Positions 19,195-63,964 of a stretch of 64,000 nt of DNA are shown here, one piece after another. The notes under the pieces were generated by a model, which was not told the origin of the DNA, did no database searches, and worked only from the letters and a program-made list of their open reading frames with translations. The number at the start of each line of letters is the position of its first letter. Position 1 is the stretch's first letter. This DNA is from Clostridia bacterium (GTDB taxonomy: Bacteria; Bacillota; Clostridia; CAKSNL01; HGM11501), in the NCBI GenBank assembly GCA_045545475.1, contig JAZQAZ010000034.1, positions 33,287-97,286 on the forward strand, written 5' to 3'. The position numbers were made by a program, and so were the translations under genes.

Positions 19195-21397
19195 AGACAG
19201 ACTTTCAAGTATGAGGGAAACAAAAATCCGTCATACTCTCTTAAAAAGAAAGCAAAACGGCTTTACCGATTTAGACGATTTCGGCACAGTGCCCATTTCC
19301 GAGGGCTATGCCGTAACACCCTGGTACAACAGCGAAAACGGAAGCTTTTACGGACTTGACGGAATGTGTGAAAACTTCTGCCGTGTACTTGATGCCCACG
19401 AGCCATATGTTGACCCCATGGAAATGCTTTGCGGTCGCTGGAGAGATATGCTTGTAAACTACAGAGGCGACCTTCACTATATGCCCGACTGGCTTAAGAA
19501 CAACCTTAAAAATCTTGAGTTTATCAAAAACGGTGCCACAAATCAGTGGAGTAAGCGTTGGGACGAACAGCGTTTTCCCTATGACCACTTAAAGCCCTGG
19601 CAGGAAAAGTACAACATCACCACCGGCATTGACGGGGATGCCCACTTTGCCTGCGACTATAAAATCGGCTTTGAGCTTGGCTTTGGCGGTTTCCTTGACA
19701 AAATTAAAAAATACCGCGAAATAAATCCCGATAAAAAGGCGTTTTACGATGCGGAAGAGCGATGCGTTCTTGCGATAGTTGCCTTTATCGACCGCCATAT
19801 TGCAAAAATCGGAGAGATGATAAAAACGGAAAACCGCTCCGAAATAAAGGAAAATCTTGAAACGATGAAAAAGGTCTGTGAAAATATTCGCCTGGGTGCA
19901 CCGCAAACCTTCCACGAGGCTTGTCAATGGACGGCGTTTTTCAACTGCGCATCCCGAATTTACACCCGTGACGGTGCAGGCTTTCAGCTTGACGGGCTTT
20001 TATATCCCTTCTACGAAAAGGACGTAAAGGACGGAATAATAGACGATGAAACAGCAAAATTCTTAATTGCAAACCTTCTTTTAATTGATCCCCATTACTA
20101 TCAGATTTCGGGCGTTGACGAAAATGATTGCGATATGACAAATAAGCTTTCCTACCTTATTCTTGACGCGGCAGATTCCATAAACATCGCCTGCAACTTA
20201 ACCGTAAGGGTGCATCCTGCCTGCGATAAGGAGTTTCTTAAGAAAGCGGTTTCCTGCCTTCTTAAAAATAAAAACGGATGGCCCAGATTCTGTAACGATA
20301 AAGCTCTTTGCGAGGGCTATATGAGAAACGGCGTGGACAAGAAAACCGCCCGTGAAAGAATTGCCGTGGGCTGTAACTGGATGTGCGTGCCCGGCAAGGA
20401 ATTCCCCATGAATGACACGGTAAAAATCAACGTGGCAAAGGTTATGGAAGAAGCCTTAAAGGATATGAAATCGGAAAAGGAAAAATCCACCACCCGACTT
20501 TTTGAAATTTACAATGAGCATCTTAAAAAAGCGGTTGAAATCACCGCCGAGGGCATAAATCTTCATATTGACCACGCCCACGACGTAACCCCCGAGCTTA
20601 TTATGAATTTAATGATGCATAACACTTTGGAAAAAGGCCTTGATATATCAGAGTGTGCCTCTCTTTACACCGTGGGCATTGACGGAGCGGGCCTTGCTGT
20701 GGTTGCCGATTCCTTCGGTGCTATGGAAAGCCGCATCGAAAAGGAAAAACTTCTTACCTGGGATGAGCTTTACGGGGCACTGGAGAGTAATTTTGCCGAT
20801 GAGCGAATCCGCCTTATGTTAAATTCAGCACCCCGCTACTGCGGCGGCGAAACGGTGTCGGATATTTGGGCAAATCGTCTTACAGAGTCCTGGGTTAAAA
20901 CCGTCAAGGGGCAGAAAATGCCTGAGGGCAGGTGTTTAGTTCCCGGTTGGTTTTCCTGGAGCAGAACCATTGAATATGGTTCTAAGGTTGGCGCAACCCC
21001 CAACGGCAGAAGGGCAGGGGAGCCCATTTCCCATGGTGCAAACCCCAATCCCGGCTTCCGTCGTGACGGTGCCGTTACCGCGCAGAGCGAGGGCATCGCA
21101 AAAATTCAGTGCGGCTACGGAAACACAGCACCGTTGCAGCTTGAGTTTGATCCCAATCTTGCAAATGACGAGGCGGGAATTGACACGGTTACAAGCTTAA
21201 TTGAAGCACATTTTGAAAACGGCGGAACATTAATAAACATCAACATCCTTGATAAGGATAAGCTTCTTGCCGCCAACGAAAACCCCGACCTTTACCCCGA
21301 CCTGGTTGTAAGAGTAACAGGCTTCACCGCATATTTTGCAAGCCTTTCACCACGTTTCCGTCAGCTTGTGGTAGACAGGTTCTTAGAAGGTATGTAA
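19181..21397 (+). CDS. glycyl radical enzyme, PFL2/HPAD-like, short (738 aa), unknown substrate
   Basis: C-terminal glycine-radical motif VVRVTGFTAYFASLSPRFRQLV; Cys-loop region AVGCNWMCVPGKE; overlaps activase gene. Confidence 0.8.
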   Translation: MLTYKDRLSSMRETKIRHTLLKRKQNGFTDLDDFGTVPISEGYAVTPWYNSENGSFYGLDGMCENFCRVLDAHEPYVDPMEMLCGRWRDMLVNYRGDLHYMPDWLKNNLKNLEFIKNGATNQWSKRWDEQRFPYDHLKPWQEKYNITTGIDGDAHFACDYKIGFELGFGGFLDKIKKYREINPDKKAFYDAEERCVLAIVAFIDRHIAKIGEMIKTENRSEIKENLETMKKVCENIRLGAPQTFHEACQWTAFFNCASRIYTRDGAGFQLDGLLYPFYEKDVKDGIIDDETAKFLIANLLLIDPHYYQISGVDENDCDMTNKLSYLILDAADSINIACNLTVRVHPACDKEFLKKAVSCLLKNKNGWPRFCNDKALCEGYMRNGVDKKTARERIAVGCNWMCVPGKEFPMNDTVKINVAKVMEEALKDMKSEKEKSTTRLFEIYNEHLKKAVEITAEGINLHIDHAHDVTPELIMNLMMHNTLEKGLDISECASLYTVGIDGAGLAVVADSFGAMESRIEKEKLLTWDELYGALESNFADERIRLMLNSAPRYCGGETVSDIWANRLTESWVKTVKGQKMPEGRCLVPGWFSWSRTIEYGSKVGATPNGRRAGEPISHGANPNPGFRRDGAVTAQSEGIAKIQCGYGNTAPLQLEFDPNLANDEAGIDTVTSLIEAHFENGGTLININILDKDKLLAANENPDLYPDLVVRVTGFTAYFASLSPRFRQLVVDRFLEGM

Positions 21398-21415
21398 TAA
21401 GGAGAGGTAAAAAAG

Positions 21416-21516
21416 AGATTCTTCCTCGGCATAGCCTTCATCAGAATGACATAGGTGTACTATGCTGTCATTCTGATAGAGGGGATTCTGAAAGCCCCGA
21501 AGGAAGAATCTGAAAA
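21416..21516. mobile_element. ~100-bp MITE-like palindromic element with 13-nt terminal inverted repeats, flanked by near-identical 16-17-nt direct repeats (21400-21415 / 21517-21533)
   Basis: TIR gattcttcctcgg...ccgaaggaagaatc; inner perfect 12-bp stem atcagaatgaca/tgtcattctgat; flanks aggagaggtaaaaaag vs aggagatgtaaaaaaag. Confidence 0.5.
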
Positions 21517-21770
21517 AGGAGATGTAAAAAAAGTCCAGACCGCAAAAAGGCAAATAAATTAGTGGGTTGGGCAAAGTTACAAACTCTATGTTGTAAAATA
21601 GTGTTGAAAAATCGCATTCCTGCGATTTTTCTTCATTTTGAGCCTTTTTGCTACGAACAAACTTCACCCTCAACGTATCTATATACGCCTTCGGGTAACT
21701 TTCGAAAAGTCTGTAAACAGACTTTCTCAATTCAGTTTGTCCGTTCTGAAGCATTTTTTCCTATCTCCTG

Positions 21771-21800
21771 AAAAAGGGGCTGTAATTATTTTACAGCCCC
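21771..21800. terminator. bidirectional terminator
   Basis: aaaaaggggctgtaattattttacagcccctttatttt. Confidence 0.6.
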
Positions 21801-21801
21801 T

Positions 21802-24636
21802 TTATTTTACAAGATATGCACTTATTTCCTTTACGGTAATTGTACCTGCACCGGTATCTGTTTTGGGTGTAACGGATATTTTCTTAACACAGATTGGTTT
21901 TGTGAAAGTGTAAAGGGATGCACCTGTTGTTATGTCATAGTCGCTGACTCCAACGGACAGTTTATTTCCCTCCGAGTCATATATGTGAACTTCCATTTTC
22001 ATATATTCATCTGATAAGACTGCCGAAATGCTTACACCATCTATCACAAGACCTTCTTTGCCGGGAAACTCCACCATAAGAGTTTTGTCATGAAGAAAAT
22101 CAATGACTTCTGCACTGTCTGTTTCATCAAGAACTGCGGCGGCGGGAAGGTAGGAGGTGTCCTTTTCTATCTTATAGGCGGACCACCCTGTTTTGTTTAC
22201 GAAAGCCTTTTCTCCTGTGGAAGCGTTAAGTGTTGCTATAGTTTCGTCGTTATTTTTTGCTGTGAAGAGACCGCCTATGGCAATGCCACCAAATACGATA
22301 ATGGCAATAGAGGCGATGAGAACCATGAACTTGAAGTTTTTTCCGGAAACTATTTTATTGAAAACACGTTTAATCGGGGAATAATGCTCGCTTACTATTC
22401 CGGATATAACTTTTTTGAATTCCAAAGTGAGGTCTTTATATTCAGGGTGAAGTACCGATACATTATCAAGCTCTTTTTTCAGCTTTTTTATATTACGGTC
22501 ATTGGTTAAAAGTGTATTGTGACGAATGAAAAATTTACGCAGTGACTCATAAAATGATGTGAGGACGGTAAAGTCTGTTCTGATTCCGGGGATATCCCTT
22601 ACAATACGCCCGTTTTTGGTCATAGGTGGAATAAAGAGGTTTGATGATAAAAACCACTCTATGAATTCAAAGGGAGGAATTGATTGCTCCTTATCTATAA
22701 ATTCCAGAATGCTGTCAAAATCCACCTGAGCACGGGAATCCTTTGAACCGTAAATATAAAACAAAATTATGTAAACAATGCGTCTCGGAGAGTCCTTCTT
22801 TTCCTTTATACAACGGAGAAGTAGGGCTTTGAGCAAATCTTCTTTAGCTTTACCGTCTGATTGAGAGTCTGCAAAGTTTGCCCTTATGTTTTCAAAACCG
22901 AAGGCATCATAGTGAACAAATGACATGGCCATATCGTTGGTTAATGCCATTATTTCCTTTGCAGCCATTGCGATTTTGTGTTTGACAGTACATTCTTCGT
23001 TGATTGCTTCTCCGTCGGCAAGGGGGAATTTTTCAATTTTTGCAAGGTTGAGCTCCGAAATATCCAGCGTGGTCATATAGTTTTCAAGAGCATAACGATA
23101 AATTACGTTAAAGAGGGAGGCGTTATCAGGATGCTTGTCTTTAAGGGCAAGACACTTCTCCTCAAGATACTTAACTGCCTCAAAGCGGTCGCCCGAAGTA
23201 TCATAAAGTTGCATTGCTCTTTGCTGTATCATTGATATAATAAGCTCGCTGTCGGCAAGCTGAGGCATTTCGGAAAAAATACTGTCCGCAAATTCCATAA
23301 CCGAATGAACGGTTTTACGCTGTTCGATAAGATAGGTGAAATAGCGTGTTATTAAGCGGTTGCTTTTTGCCATTTTATGCTCTATTAATTTGTTATACAG
23401 CTCGCTGCTTCCTCTGGATGAGTCGATGTGCATGAAAAGAATTTCATTTTCCGAGGATTTAAGGCAGGAATCTATATCCAGCGTTATAAGGTCATAAAGT
23501 TCGTCTTTCTGCTTTTCTGGACAAAGGTCGTATGTTGAAACCAGTCTTTTGAGAATTTCCGGAGGGATCAGTATTTCCTTGCTTTTAATATAGCGTCTGT
23601 AAAGCTTTATAAATTCAGAATAAGAGGCGAGCAGACCTGGTTTGTCATCAGAACGCAAAAATTCTGCAAAAACTGTTGTAATTCTGCCGAGTCTTTGAGG
23701 AAGTGTTTCCTCGTTATCCTTTAAGTTATATATATAGGCAAGGTCGTTATAAAAACGCAGTGACAGAATTTTTTCTGTGGGAAAAGCACGTTCAGCTTCT
23801 CTGGCAAAAGCAAAAAAGTCTGAAAGTGAGGTGCCTGTGGCAAAGCTTGTTGATACAAAGGAAAGGTATTCCTCAGAAAGAGCTTCCTTTGTGTCAGGAA
23901 CCTGAGAACGGTTTTTCTTGCTGAAATTGAATATATAATCCTTTGAAGCGTCATAGGATTCGATTGAAAATCTTCCGCTGGGCGAGACTTTATCGTCGGG
24001 AATAAAGTAGATATTTATTTCGGGGCGAATCTCTGTTTCTCCGAAAAGAGTGCAAAAGCCGGTTTTGCTTCTCATAAAAAAGGGAAGGTATTCGTAGAGT
24101 CCGTACATTATGGCACATATTTTATCAATGTCTGTTTTTCTGGGAAGAGCAATGAAAATTTTTCTGTTTTGCTCAACAGATGCGAAAACAGCGGCGAGAA
24201 GTGCCATGTATTCTGTATGAGACATGTTAAGGGAGGCAAAAGCTTTTTTCAGGAAAGTGCTGCGTTCTTTTGTAAAAGGAAGTTCCTTTAGCGACGGCAG
24301 ATATGGGTTTTTTGCATCATCGGGTTCAGGGAGAGCCAAAATGGCAGCAGGGTCGGAAACAACGGCAGATACATCATCCTGAGGAATGATGTAATTATGG
24401 ATGCAGGAATAAGGTTCTGTAGCCGATTTCATTCCCGTGCCGATTAAAAGACCGCCACCCGATAAAGGAATGAAGCTTTTGTATCCGGGCGAGTCTTTGC
24501 CCTCTAGATAAAAGAGATCCAGCATGGAGTAAAAAGGACGGATTGCATTGTCGATATATTCTTCGGTTAACGTTGTGGATTTTGAAGAAGTTTCAAGTCC
24601 AATTCCCGTTTTTATGTAAATTTGCTGTTCTATCAT
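21802..24636 (-). CDS. large (944 aa) hypothetical protein: ~745-aa cytoplasmic alpha-rich region, single TM helix, ~170-aa beta-rich extracytoplasmic C-terminal domain
   Basis: Long uninterrupted ORF with RBS GGAGGAAAAGG; TM FKFMVLIASIAIIVFGGIAIGGLF near residue 750; no recognisable catalytic motifs. Confidence 0.6.
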   Translation of the reverse strand: MIEQQIYIKTGIGLETSSKSTTLTEEYIDNAIRPFYSMLDLFYLEGKDSPGYKSFIPLSGGGLLIGTGMKSATEPYSCIHNYIIPQDDVSAVVSDPAAILALPEPDDAKNPYLPSLKELPFTKERSTFLKKAFASLNMSHTEYMALLAAVFASVEQNRKIFIALPRKTDIDKICAIMYGLYEYLPFFMRSKTGFCTLFGETEIRPEINIYFIPDDKVSPSGRFSIESYDASKDYIFNFSKKNRSQVPDTKEALSEEYLSFVSTSFATGTSLSDFFAFAREAERAFPTEKILSLRFYNDLAYIYNLKDNEETLPQRLGRITTVFAEFLRSDDKPGLLASYSEFIKLYRRYIKSKEILIPPEILKRLVSTYDLCPEKQKDELYDLITLDIDSCLKSSENEILFMHIDSSRGSSELYNKLIEHKMAKSNRLITRYFTYLIEQRKTVHSVMEFADSIFSEMPQLADSELIISMIQQRAMQLYDTSGDRFEAVKYLEEKCLALKDKHPDNASLFNVIYRYALENYMTTLDISELNLAKIEKFPLADGEAINEECTVKHKIAMAAKEIMALTNDMAMSFVHYDAFGFENIRANFADSQSDGKAKEDLLKALLLRCIKEKKDSPRRIVYIILFYIYGSKDSRAQVDFDSILEFIDKEQSIPPFEFIEWFLSSNLFIPPMTKNGRIVRDIPGIRTDFTVLTSFYESLRKFFIRHNTLLTNDRNIKKLKKELDNVSVLHPEYKDLTLEFKKVISGIVSEHYSPIKRVFNKIVSGKNFKFMVLIASIAIIVFGGIAIGGLFTAKNNDETIATLNASTGEKAFVNKTGWSAYKIEKDTSYLPAAAVLDETDSAEVIDFLHDKTLMVEFPGKEGLVIDGVSISAVLSDEYMKMEVHIYDSEGNKLSVGVSDYDITTGASLYTFTKPICVKKISVTPKTDTGAGTITVKEISAYLVK

Positions 24637-24755
24637 ATCCTTTTCCTCCTTTTTTGAAATTCATAAATATATTCTATCAAAAGTCAGTACATTTTTCAAG
24701 TTATTCTTGACAAATGAATGAAAATTTTTTATAATATTAAATGTTGTGAATATAT

Positions 24756-24831
24756 GCTGGTGTGGCTCAGTCGGTAGAGCAATTGATTCGTAATCAATAG
24801 ATCGTCGGTTCAAGTCCGATCACCAGCTCCA
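24756..24831 (+). tRNA. tRNA-Thr (anticodon CGT)
   Basis: 76 nt, acceptor stem GCTGGTG/CACCAGC, D-loop AGTCGGTAGAGC, anticodon loop tTCGTAa, T-arm GGTTCAAGTCC, 3' CCA encoded; TTGACA-N18-TATAAT promoter upstream. Confidence 0.88.
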
Positions 24832-24835
24832 AAAA

Positions 24836-24871
24836 AGAGAGAGCTACGCAAAGCGTGGCTCTCTCTTTTTT
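24836..24871 (+). terminator. rho-independent terminator after tRNA-Thr
   Basis: agagagagctacgcaaagcgtggctctctct hairpin + TTTTTT. Confidence 0.7.
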
Positions 24872-25175
24872 GAATCTTAATGACGGACTTGAAAGGGCGG
24901 TCCAAACAAACAGTCCGGCGGACTGTTTGTCCGCCCGTGGCTTTTCCGCAGAAAAGCAAGTCCGATCACAAATAAAAGTATAGCTGTTTTTTGAATTTGT
25001 AATTGGCGGAGCGAACTTGTCTTAGGCGAAATTACCCGAAGGGAATTTAGCCGGAGGCAACGCTCAAGGTCCGCCGTGAGGTTAAGCGTTGACTGATTAT
25101 GGGAGCGAACTTGTCTGGCGTGTTTTTTTCTATTGAAAAAGACACAATAATATGATAAAATTTATTTATTAATAT

Positions 25176-63010: not shown

Positions 63011-63263
63011 CGATGGAAGAAAGGGTGCTTATAAATTTGGTTATATCGGCATTTGCTGTTGCTTCATCAACATCATATTCGTTAAGGAAAGCATCAAGGA
63101 TTTCTTCTTTGCCCTTGCCTTCCGAGATGAGGTTAAATAAAAAAACACCTGTTTCGTTTAATGTAATGATTTTATTTTTGAGGTCTGGGTTAAGAAACAT
63201 TAAAATGTTTTCTCCGGCAATTTCCTTTAATATAAAGCCTGATTTGATTTTCATTTTTATCAT
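62994..63263 (-). CDS. PqqD-family protein (RiPP recognition element-like)
   Basis: 89 aa; ...ILMFLNPDLKNKIITLNETGVFLFNLISEGKGKEEILDAFLNEYDVDEATANADITKFISTLSSIGAL matches PqqD/RRE pattern. Confidence 0.7.
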   Translation of the reverse strand: MIKMKIKSGFILKEIAGENILMFLNPDLKNKIITLNETGVFLFNLISEGKGKEEILDAFLNEYDVDEATANADITKFISTLSSIGALED

Positions 63264-63964
63264 CCTTTCTTATTCATTGTCCGCTCGGCAATGATTGCGG
63301 CTTCATCTGATATATTGCATGAAAGTCTGTATGCAGGAATATGATTTAAAAAACTGTCAAGTAGAGTGAACAGTTTTTCGGTGGCTTCTTTTTCTTCAGG
63401 TATATACAACTGGTCAAATATTTTTAAGAGAACCTCTTTGCTGCTTATGGGACAGATACTGTTTTTTTTGGATCTTTCAATAAAGCAAAGGGCACCGACC
63501 TTTGCACGGGCGTTTTTATTATAGCCTTCTTTTCCGCACCAGGGAGTGCCGTATACATAAAACTCCCCGTCAATAAGTCTGAAAATGGGTTTATCCCCGT
63601 TTATTATAAAAGAGCCGGGGAAGTTTTTGAGCCACAGCATCGAATGGGTGGTTTTTCCCGTTCCGCTTTTAGCAGTAAAGACGTAGGCAACACCTTGATG
63701 AACCACCACGGAAGAATGCATCATAAAGGCGTTATGTGAAATAACCAGCGAACAGATTTTTCTGTAAAGACAAAGGGATTCGTGATAAGGAACAGGGAAG
63801 GCGGGTTCCTTCTTTGCGGCAAGAAGGAGATCATCTTCTGTAACCTCAACGGTGAAGTCGGCTTCATCTTCGGTCGTTACTACATAATCCTTTATAAGGT
63901 CAAGGGTGCATTTATACTTTATTTTTATATCGAACAACAAGTCGCAAAGCTTAAGCTTAAGCAT
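63260..63964 (-). CDS. HPr kinase/phosphorylase C-terminal-domain-like P-loop protein (HprK-related kinase)
   Basis: Walker A FTAKSGTGKTTHS followed by G-rich loop; size and P-loop position as in HprK C-domain; overlaps PqqD gene by 4 nt (ATGA). Confidence 0.6.
   Translation of the reverse strand: MLKLKLCDLLFDIKIKYKCTLDLIKDYVVTTEDEADFTVEVTEDDLLLAAKKEPAFPVPYHESLCLYRKICSLVISHNAFMMHSSVVVHQGVAYVFTAKSGTGKTTHSMLWLKNFPGSFIINGDKPIFRLIDGEFYVYGTPWCGKEGYNKNARAKVGALCFIERSKKNSICPISSKEVLLKIFDQLYIPEEKEATEKLFTLLDSFLNHIPAYRLSCNISDEAAIIAERTMNKKG

Follow-up and report, generated by a model that had tools for sequence, protein, structure and literature searches.

What kind of protein is encoded by a gene of 944 codons that lies back to back with a tRNA-Thr gene in the DNA of a Clostridia bacterium, and did it reach that position as mobile cargo or by descent? 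We addressed this question in a 64-kb stretch of DNA surrounding the gene (the window) and in the loci of its homologs. The initial annotation had described the product as an orphan of sensor or anchor topology in a typical accessory-gene position. Sequence comparison instead identifies it as a divergent, solo member of the GAP1-N2 family. A GAP1 protein is normally the partner of a GTPase in widespread predicted bacterial conflict systems, and GAP1 is a family that has so far been described by comparative genomics only (Kaur, Burroughs, Iyer and Aravind, eLife 2020). The family itself is thus already known, purely computationally, and what is new here is a solo, membrane-anchored variant.

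Gene and Protein Architecture

The open reading frame is real, and its features are collected in Table 1. The protein has one hydrophobic segment, FKFMVLIASIAIIVFGGIAIGGLF (KD19 maximum 2.64), flanked by charges of +4 on the N side and -1 on the C side, a positive-inside distribution that supports an N-in/C-out orientation and upholds the big-inside, small-outside topology first proposed. The proposed division into 745 cytoplasmic and 170 outside residues was right in kind, with figures that we correct to about 767 and 153. Structure models (pLDDT 79 and 89) show a mostly helical cytoplasmic part and an all-beta C-terminal part, again as described, and the protein carries neither a Walker A motif nor any recognisable enzymatic motif. 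The gene is monocistronic, as first described: it has its own promoter, ribosome-binding site (RBS) and terminator, and the genes on both sides lie on the opposite strand.

Table 1. Features of the solo GAP1 gene and the adjoining tRNA-Thr gene, in window coordinates.
Feature	Position	Strand	Basis
Coding sequence, complete, ATG start, 944 aa	21802..24636	-	ORF call and collinear homologs
Remodelled GAP1-N2-like N-terminal alpha+beta domain, residues 1-110	24307..24636	-	hhalign from residue 2; residue comparison
GAP1-M alpha/beta domain (PF20014), residues 120-250, with LP..R...GF.T motif	23887..24279	-	Pfam; retained invariants
GAP1-C-equivalent all-helical region, residues 251-765, ARM/HEAT-like solenoid	22342..23886	-	
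TM helix, residues 768-791, N-in/C-out	22264..22335	-	KD19 peak; flank charges
Extracytoplasmic CBM32 / F5/8-type-C-like beta-sandwich, residues 816-944	21805..22191	-	
Gene promoter: -35 TTGAAA 24699-24694, 17-nt spacer, TG-extended -10 TAGAAT ending 24671; GGAGG RBS 24649-24645	24645..24699	-	
Intrinsic terminator of the gene: perfect 13-bp stem, 5-nt loop, TTTTT; overlaps stop codon	21773..21803	-	
tRNA-Thr promoter TTGACA-17-TATAAT, 12/12 consensus	24707..24735	+	
tRNA-Thr(CGT), divergent from the gene	24756..24831	+	Sole neighbour conserved across the family
tRNA terminator hairpin: 13-bp stem, AAA loop, T6	24837..24871	+	

Purifying selection on the gene is strong, with a dN/dS of ~0.09 against a 79%-identical ortholog. 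Across the family, 121 residues are invariant and are distributed over every domain, with conservation highest in the helical solenoid. Origin by fusion of frameshifted smaller genes is ruled out, both by this ratio and by the collinearity of 21 homologs from MIEQQ to the C-terminus.

Homologs and Assignment to the GAP1-N2 Family

The orphan label does not survive comparison with other genomes. At least 21 full-length homologs with 42-99% identity occur in uncultured gut and rumen Clostridia, and 20 of 21 have intact frames of 941-949 aa; the remaining one is listed at 1004 aa solely because an upstream start was miscalled. Their taxonomic range is narrow, comprising about 10 species-level MAGs, among them GCA_045588365.1, GCA_054274415.1, GCA_030705805.1, GCA_045644565.1 and GCA_045123995.1.

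The Pfam GAP1-M domain (PF20014) matches residues 144-221 at 24.4 bits, just above the gathering cutoff of 24 (E 3.6e-5), and is matched by all 21 family members (best E 3.6e-8). A profile search of 1.84e9 representatives returned 174 matches at E<=1e-3, canonical GAP1-N2+M proteins among them, and the matches at positions 1-315 are GAP1-N2+M proteins. The remote-homology check that the initial annotation had suggested yielded clear homology to a described family, an outcome that it had itself named as contradicting its reading: hhalign against canonical GAP1-N2 proteins gave a probability of 100% and an E-value of 4e-59 over 727 columns, from residue 2 to ~795. With a canonical GAP1 protein as query, tblastn recovered the window gene at 4e-17, covering query residues 3-767. 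Searches of NCBIfam, PADLOC, PHROGs and PDB sequences with the single protein as query produced nothing meaningful.

The N-terminal domain is the divergent part. PF20013 (GAP1-N2) has no direct Pfam match to the 944-aa protein, because this domain has been remodelled by an 8-residue deletion and the loss of many invariants; outgroup protein P0022 matches PF20013 at 1.5e-7. Residue comparison with canonical proteins showed that the N domain keeps the IEQQ start, G61, G66 and H80 of the 'HNY' motif. Among the canonical invariants that are gone, R13 is replaced by K, G17 is deleted, and K40, H44, C47, R96 and F127 are lost. The M domain retains P185, R189, G193 and T196 of the LP..R...GF.T motif. 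All three domains of the family are accordingly present: GAP1-M, GAP1-N (via hhalign and the outgroup) and a collinear helical GAP1-C region.

The protein therefore resembles the GAP1-N2 proteins of DO-GTPase systems (PF20013/PF20014, tubulin/vWA theme) along its whole cytoplasmic region, which is collinear with theirs. It shares with them the motifs IxQQ, HNY and LPxxxRxxxGFxT, ~750-800 cytoplasmic residues, a single TM helix and a variable ectodomain. A cytoplasmic body followed by a TM helix and an ectodomain is the GAP1-N2 norm, found in 80 of 107 full-length relatives with the TM at residues 740-810. Kaur et al. (2020) reported C-terminal fusions of GAP1-N2 proteins to TMs and extracellular domains, and they read TM-fused GAP1 proteins much as the initial annotation had; a sensor or anchor that spans the membrane was, in general terms, the right idea. 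The N domain in canonical proteins is not remodelled in this way, however, and their ectodomain is cadherin rather than CBM32-like.

Separation from the GTPase Operon

Canonical GAP1 genes have close partners: as the family is defined, GAP1 is encoded just downstream of a DO-GTPase or is fused to one. In all four canonical relatives studied as controls (P0028, P0029, P0030 and P0032), GAP1 forms part of a vWA-tubulin-DO-GTPase-GAP1 operon, and its start overlaps the stop codon of the upstream DO-GTPase. Close linkage and co-evolution of GAP1 and GTPase were likewise emphasised by Kaur et al. (2020).

The solo-type loci differ in this respect. The partner search covered +/-10 kb around the homologs and the 64 kb of the window; 0 of 10 distinct solo-type loci hold vWA, tubulin or DO-GTPase partners within 10 kb. 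Using tblastn on the window and nine homolog loci (L001-L009), we found no canonical DO-GTPase (PF19975/PF19993) homolog better than E 0.4, and tubulin, vWA and the two unknown operon partners were absent. The gene tables of the same nine loci list no GTPase-system partner families, and the window contains no large P-loop protein or P-loop GTPase candidate. GAP1-N2 systems come with a linked FNIII-repeat protein and a tubulin/vWA, HSP70/GrpE or kinase/PP2C theme; no such set accompanies the solo gene, which is surrounded by genes of metabolic or housekeeping function. When the neighbours in 11 loci (including L011, L016, L017 and L021) were clustered all against all, no partner-like gene recurred throughout: a DHDPS-family gene occurs in five and a pair made up of a small protein and a beta-propeller in two, neither being general.

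These results demonstrate that the solo protein derives from the GAP1 component of Firmicute vWA-tubulin-DO-GTPase-GAP1 systems, and that in this uncultured gut and rumen Clostridia clade it stands apart from the GTPase and from every other partner.

Promoters and Linkage to tRNA-Thr

The adjoining tRNA-Thr gene was reported correctly in the initial annotation. Its promoter and that of the protein gene stand back to back with their -35 boxes 7 bp apart. The protein gene is driven by a strong promoter of the sigma-A type, whose two hexamers hardly vary among 11 loci that reach down to 42% protein identity; the tRNA-Thr promoter is invariant in the same number of loci. The GGAGG RBS lies 8 nt ahead of the ATG. 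Every one of the 10 informative family loci, again down to 42% identity, has tRNA-Thr(CGT) in this same orientation. Its distance from the start codon is 117-125 nt in eight of them and 166 and 197 nt in the other two, and the tRNA variants follow the protein subgroups. Synteny with ilvBN is kept at 63-79% protein identity.

The shared promoter region on the 5' side, the 10/10 tRNA pairing and the ilvBN synteny indicate vertical inheritance, and the pairing is an ancestral linkage at the tRNA 5' side rather than a tRNA-3' island. This locus thereby departs from the mobile, patchy neighbourhoods of GAP1-N2 DO-GTPase systems, and the accessory-gene position first assigned to it does not hold. 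The marks of a tRNA island (insertion at the 3' end, an integrase, flanking att repeats, presence/absence variation) were not found at this locus. All six adjacent genes that were checked have metabolic roles, neither integrase nor transposase families occur among them, and Rfam at a permissive threshold detected only the tRNA around it. Only one repeat of a tRNA arm occurs: 13 nt of the 3' arm recur in direct orientation 146 nt downstream of the original, on the 3' side away from the gene. The MITE that had been proposed nearby is unsupported, because the nested palindrome at 21416-21511 occurs in a single copy in the window and nothing marks it as a repeated mobile element. The tRNA linkage itself may be a frozen result of overlapping promoters, without functional coupling.

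Ectodomain and Structural Resemblances

Structure comparison of the predicted model assigned the ectodomain to the galactose-binding-like beta-sandwiches of the CBM32 / F5/8 type C kind; the fold-match list also includes IFT25 and APC10/Doc1. Its conserved residues include W818 and an S-D-Y-D loop (898-901). Seventeen ectodomain sequences matched neither PF00754 (CBM32) nor any other Pfam family beyond noise at E<=10, and identity to the CBM32 modules of Clostridium perfringens NanJ, GH89, NagH and others is 8-19%. Whereas the Clostridium perfringens modules belong to secreted glycosidases, this one is joined by a TM helix to a cytoplasmic scaffold. From the modelled fold, the ectodomain may bind glycans outside the cell. 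Beta-sandwiches of the CBM32/discoidin fold also mediate protein-protein contacts.

The overall arrangement has an analogue in the RsgI-type anti-sigma factors of Clostridia, single-pass proteins with a CBM ectodomain outside and a protein-interaction region inside. By analogy, the solo GAP1 protein would share with these sensors an N-in/C-out single pass, a carbohydrate-binding-type module outside and an interaction region inside. It differs in having neither an anti-sigma domain nor an adjacent sigma factor, its cytoplasmic part being GAP1.

The order of secondary-structure elements in the modelled N domain appears to fit a longin-like beta-beta-alpha-beta-beta-beta-alpha-alpha topology. One structural method, but not Foldseek, matched the protein to the eukaryotic DENN module, a longin domain joined to a DENN core, as in the Rab35 GEF DENND1A (PDB 6ekk), and profile searches against PDB sequences gave no sequence signal for this likeness. 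The DENN module and GAP1 are both GTPase-associated. The resemblance is absent from the GAP1 paper (Kaur et al. 2020), and we treat a DENN-like fold as a possible lead from modelling, not as family membership.

Functional Interpretation

We found no experimental study of any GAP1 protein in the literature searched. Profile searches of PDB sequences with both GAP1 alignments returned designed helical proteins only, or nothing, indicating that no GAP1 relative has been solved. Statements on function consequently rest on architecture. On this footing, the protein is most likely a GAP1 scaffold, domesticated and anchored in the membrane, through which the binding of a glycan on the outside would be coupled to a partner in the cytoplasm. 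The glycan bound by the ectodomain would be the wall polysaccharide of the cell itself or one that is external or phage-associated, and this binding, or its loss, would be passed through the TM helix. In response, the GAP1 platform in the cytoplasm would change its conformation or its state of oligomerisation and would recruit or release its partner through the conserved M-domain surface (P185, R189, G193, T196) and the helical solenoid. The partner is probably no longer the cognate DO-GTPase of the operon, since N-domain invariants have been lost and the GAP1 N domain co-varies with DO-GTPase type (Kaur et al. 2020). As Q4, G61, G66, H80, P185, R189 and G193 are retained, the ancestral interaction surface may still serve. 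The joint reading, a vertically inherited solo GAP1-N2 protein that relays envelope glycan sensing to a cytoplasmic partner, probably no longer the DO-GTPase of the operon, has in our estimate a little less than an even chance of being correct in full.

The protein could alternatively still work in a DO-GTPase conflict (anti-phage) system whose GTPase and effectors are unlinked, sensing at the envelope and activating the GTPase in trans. Homology to system GAP1 proteins over the full length, together with the IxQQ strand kept at the extreme N-terminus and the PxxxRxxxG of the M domain, speaks for this. We nevertheless consider it unlikely, given that GAP1 overlaps the GTPase stop codon in 4/4 canonical relatives, in line with the linkage and co-evolution stressed by Kaur et al., while no partner lies within 10 kb in 10 distinct solo-type loci or in the window. 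The domain that tracks GTPase type has also lost many invariants, PADLOC gave no match, and a gene passed on vertically among housekeeping genes does not resemble a mobile defence island. Somewhat less probable still is a purely structural envelope protein, in which the CBM32-like domain tethers the membrane to wall polysaccharide and the large helical body serves as a scaffold or an anchor akin to the cytoskeleton, for instance in division, sporulation or the shaping of the cell, and does not switch. Such a role would be in keeping with the strong, invariant promoter, which seems to be constitutive and is paired with that of a tRNA, with a solenoid that is the most conserved region, and with the sporulation and housekeeping genes among the window ORFs. 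Against it, nothing points to self-assembly, the retained GAP1-M invariants argue for a specific partner surface, and about 10 species-level MAGs form an unusually narrow range for a basic structural function.

Two further explanations are already contradicted by the data. That the gene is accessory cargo carried by an island inserted at tRNA-Thr, as the initial annotation had it, would account for the adjoining tRNA, and the 13-nt copy of its 3' arm leaves room for the tRNA having once been an integration site. We regard this as very improbable: the gene sits at the tRNA 5' side with a promoter region common to both, opposite the att-like repeat, and the pairing recurs in every informative locus down to 42% identity with tRNA variants that follow protein subgroups. 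The metabolic character of the six neighbours, the absence of an integrase family among them and the preserved ilvBN synteny agree with this verdict. A gene in decay, left over from a GAP1 system that was lost and without current function, would fit the loss of every partner and the erosion of N-domain invariants, and it is scarcely credible in view of intact 941-949-aa frames in 20/21 homologs, the low dN/dS, the 121 invariant residues over all domains and the conserved promoter and RBS.

The naturally solo protein is a simplified case of GAP1 acting alone, strongly conserved and apparently constitutive, and its CBM32-type ectodomain is a direct experimental handle. The invariant bidirectional promoter likewise offers a clean case in which a gene for a protein has stayed tied to a tRNA gene despite many rearrangements. 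A broader and more speculative proposal, which we hold to be improbable at present, would make GAP1-N and GAP1-M together a bacterial GTPase-regulatory module of longin/DENN-like build, a structural counterpart of eukaryotic Rab GEF/GAP platforms. Here it would have been domesticated by release from the DO-GTPase system, addition of a lectin-type ectodomain and attachment to the tRNA-Thr(CGU) promoter, turning a former immunity component into a growth-coupled envelope or glycan receptor. If the DENN-like lead were true, it would be relevant to the prokaryotic ancestry of eukaryotic GTPase regulators. For these gut Clostridia MAGs, the annotation of the gene can be changed from 'hypothetical protein' to 'GAP1-N2 family membrane protein, CBM32-like ectodomain'.

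The 944-aa protein is a GAP1 family member

A search of 5.8 billion proteins retrieved 21 full-length homologs of the 944-aa protein, at 42–99% identity; those with a source name are all labelled uncultured Clostridia or Bacillota MAGs. Twenty of the 21 are 941–949 aa long, and the remaining one (P0007) reaches 1004 aa through a miscalled upstream start, its 59-residue N-terminal "extension" (alignment columns 1–59) coming from translation of the neighbouring tRNA-Thr gene's antisense strand. The window contains this spurious ORF as well. The homologs can be aligned over their full length and share 121 invariant positions, found in every region, which rules out a frameshift fusion of smaller genes. 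Comparison with a 79%-identical ortholog gave dN 0.13 and dS 1.43, and the resulting dN/dS of about 0.09 shows that purifying selection on the gene is strong. When one genome per species was scanned, the gene turned up in about 10 species-level MAGs, whose sources were goat colon, human faeces and Hadza samples.

The only Pfam match of the window protein is GAP1-M (PF20014), at 24.4 bits against a gathering threshold of 24; this domain is matched by all 21 family members (best E 3.6e-8). GAP1 (GTPase-associated protein 1) is, by its original definition, the partner conserved alongside DO-GTPases in systems predicted to act in conflict (Kaur, Burroughs, Iyer and Aravind, eLife 2020; PMC7159879). 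The family profile, searched exhaustively against 1.84 billion representatives, yielded 174 matches at E<=1e-3. Beyond the family and a 969-aa outgroup protein (P0022), matches covered profile positions 1–315, some reaching about 550; those at positions 1–315 are canonical GAP1-N2 plus GAP1-M proteins, with E-values for GAP1-N2 (PF20013) down to 1e-49. The outgroup itself matches GAP1-N2 at 1.5e-7. Profile-profile comparison with 21 canonical GAP1-N2 proteins gave a probability of 100% and an E-value of 4.1e-59; the alignment spans 727 columns, between residue 2 and about residue 795. Sequence comparison therefore assigns the whole cytoplasmic part to GAP1, beyond a single domain. No experimental study of GAP1 turned up in the literature searched, and a solved structure exists for none of the relatives. 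The initial annotation's description of the protein as an orphan thus fails, given its 21 homologs and its membership of a family already known, though only computationally; what is new is a solo GAP1, lacking the canonical partners nearby, that is vertically inherited, carries a modelled CBM32-like ectodomain and shares a promoter pairing with tRNA-Thr.

Gene structure and membrane topology

The ORF had been placed exactly, and the hydrophobic stretch originally quoted corresponds to residues 768–791, the sole segment whose Kyte-Doolittle mean over 19 residues exceeds 1.6 (maximum 2.64). Net charge is +4 in the 15 residues before this helix and -1 in the 15 after it, so that by the positive-inside rule the topology is N-in/C-out. 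The proposed large-inside, small-outside split stands, with its sizes corrected from 745 and 170 to about 767 residues inside and 153 outside; the reported lack of a Walker A motif was also borne out. A single hydrophobic segment at residues 740–810, followed by 0–260 further residues, occurs in 80 of 107 full-length relatives, making this layout the family norm. The gene owns its promoter, RBS and terminator and, since both neighbouring genes lie on the opposite strand, is monocistronic, as had been suggested.

Features of the gene, its product and the surrounding DNA
Feature	Position	Strand	Basis or detail
Solo GAP1 gene	21802..24636	-	ATG start, 944 aa
N domain, alpha+beta	residues 25-100		AF2 model
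M domain, alpha/beta	residues 123-250		AF2 model
Long helical region	residues 250-760		AF2 model
TM helix	residues 767-794		AF2 model
Beta-sandwich	residues 799-941		AF2 model
Promoter-like site	24699-24671	-	sequence; TTGAAA-17-TAGAAT with TG extension
RBS GGAGG	8 nt before ATG	-	sequence
Terminator of GAP1 gene	21773-21803		perfect 13-bp hairpin then T-run, overlapping stop codon
123-aa ORF	21383-21754	-	AGGAG RBS
Hairpin in 123-aa ORF	21606-21631		perfect, 11 bp
Nested palindrome	21416-21511		outer arms 11 nt (100% complementary), inner arms 26 nt (77%)
tRNA-Thr(CGT)	24756-24831	+
Spurious antisense-tRNA ORF	24661-24813	-
tRNA-Thr 3' arm and direct copy	24811-24823, 24957-24969		CAAGTCCGATCAC, 13 nt
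Inverted copy of T-arm	24884-24893		10 nt
Direct repeat	25008-25022, 25102-25116		GGAGCGAACTTGTCT, 15 nt
234-aa ORF	63260-63964	-	Walker A motif AKSGTGKT

The 123-aa ORF, whose good RBS immediately follows the GAP1 terminator, has no Pfam match; it may be non-coding, or may hold a small gene of about 45 codons whose end lies close to the internal hairpin. The nested palindrome just after the glycyl-radical-enzyme gene had been called a MITE. It is single-copy in the window, so nothing supports a mobile element. Its role may be that of a terminator, or of a structured element at the 3' end of the operon upstream.

The gene is paired with a divergent tRNA-Thr

The tRNA-Thr gene was confirmed beside the GAP1 gene; its reading as an accessory-island marker fails. 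No other neighbour is conserved. In all 10 family loci long enough to show it, with protein identity as low as 42%, a tRNA-Thr(CGT) gene is found divergently oriented ahead of the start codon. It is separated from that codon by 117–125 nt in eight of these loci and by 166 and 197 nt in the other two. The protein-coding genes on either side vary between lineages, and outgroup P0022 lacks the tRNA. Alignment of 11 intergenic regions demonstrated a near-invariant core with both promoters back to back: TATAAT-17-TTGACA for the tRNA strand, 7 bp, then TTGAAA-17-TGnTAAAAT for the gene strand. Variants of the tRNA sequence track protein subgroups and ilvBN synteny is kept at 63–79% identity, and these sequence patterns therefore indicate vertical co-inheritance of gene and tRNA. 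Each promoter sits in the other's upstream region; the pair may have survived many rearrangements because any breakpoint between the promoters would damage both.

Downstream of the tRNA, a direct copy of its 3' arm recurs 146 nt from the original (chance expectation about 6e-4), with an inverted T-arm copy between the two. These repeats look like an att-like scar left when an element once integrated at the tRNA 3' end and was excised, and lie on the glutaminase-gene side, away from the GAP1 gene. The 15-nt repeat, its copies 94 nt apart in the long leader between tRNA and glutaminase gene, may belong to this scar or represent a regulatory element not yet recognised; the leader has no Rfam match.

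Predicted structure and ectodomain

The AF2 model built on the family alignment had a mean pLDDT of 79, exceeding 90 across most of residues 250–760. Modelled alone, the ectodomain (pLDDT 88.9, pTM 0.85) is clearly predicted to be a CBM32 / F5/8-type-C / fucolectin-type sandwich, and the "discoidin-like feel" noted initially was correct. It has no Pfam sequence match; its conserved residues are W818, G862, G867 and the loop S898-D899-Y900-D901.

Beta-sandwich modules aside, the top-ranked natural-protein structural match was to the eukaryotic DENN module (longin plus DENN core; e.g., DENND1A, PDB 6ekk). Its aligned length corresponds to N+M, and the N domain has its strands and helices in an order compatible with a longin-like topology. 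The match was not reproduced by Foldseek, no sequence signal for a DENN relationship was found, and the GAP1 paper (PMC7159879) mentions neither DENN nor longin. We treat this modelled resemblance as a lead only, one that would raise the interest of solo GAP1 if confirmed.

Canonical partners missing from the loci, and proposed function

All four canonical relatives looked up, the closest outside the clade included, share one operon layout, vWA - Tubulin_2 - unknown (735-788 aa) - [vWA] - unknown (213-227 aa) - DO-GTPase - GAP1, in which the GAP1 start overlaps the GTPase stop. In canonical Firmicute operons (L010 4379-6745 and 8076-8723; equivalents in L022, L023 and L024), both conserved unknowns lack a Pfam family. 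No gene table of the first nine loci (L001-L009, which represent six distinct places and include the outgroup) lists a canonical partner, and tblastn of every canonical-operon protein against the window and these loci found the GAP1 gene alone (best other E 0.08). Four additional places from the genome scan (L011, L016, L017, L021) bring the solo-type loci to 10 distinct, and no partner-like neighbour recurs across the clustered loci, these four included. The 64-kb window holds no large P-loop protein; the 234-aa Walker A ORF, 39 kb from the GAP1 gene and without a Pfam match at E<=1e-3, is too small for a DO-GTPase.

Of the 39 columns conserved at 90% or more in canonical N+M, the solo clade keeps 13 at the same level, among them P185, R189, G193, T196, F211 and F236 of the M domain. 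Most N-domain invariants are altered: R13 is replaced by K9, G17 and C47 are deleted, and K40, H44, R96 and F127 are lost. GAP1-N type is reported to co-vary with DO-GTPase type (PMC7159879), and this erosion would thus be the expected outcome of losing the cognate GTPase.

The data establish the protein's family, layout, topology and ectodomain fold, the selection on its gene, its solo context and the pairing with the tRNA and its promoter; the function we infer. Most likely the protein would be a domesticated, membrane-anchored GAP1 scaffold. The lectin-type ectodomain would bind a wall or environmental glycan, and the cytoplasmic platform, comprising the M-domain surface and the solenoid, would engage some partner, a role that a cognate, operon-encoded DO-GTPase probably no longer fills. 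Continued service to an unlinked DO-GTPase system seems rather unlikely to us, and a non-signalling envelope scaffold slightly more so. The data contradict the two other readings: island cargo, set beside the conserved tRNA pairing, is highly improbable, and a relic, set beside the substitution rates, is the least credible of all.

Two neighbourhood patterns were also observed. At L003 (12877-16439) and L007 (7768-9711), which represent two distant lineages (outgroup P0022 and the member at 42% identity), the GAP1-like gene adjoins a gene for a homologous 173–195-aa protein and one or two LRP1-like beta-propeller genes, in differing orientations; these may be a lineage-specific partner or coincidence. 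A DHDPS/NanA-family gene lies within 10 kb of the GAP1-like gene at five of 11 clustered loci (L002, L014, L016, L017, L021), accompanied by a GH3 glycosidase at three of them (L002, L017, L021). What remains of an older synteny may explain this recurrence; alternatively, it may point to amino-sugar/sialic-acid metabolism, a link that would fit the lectin-type ectodomain.
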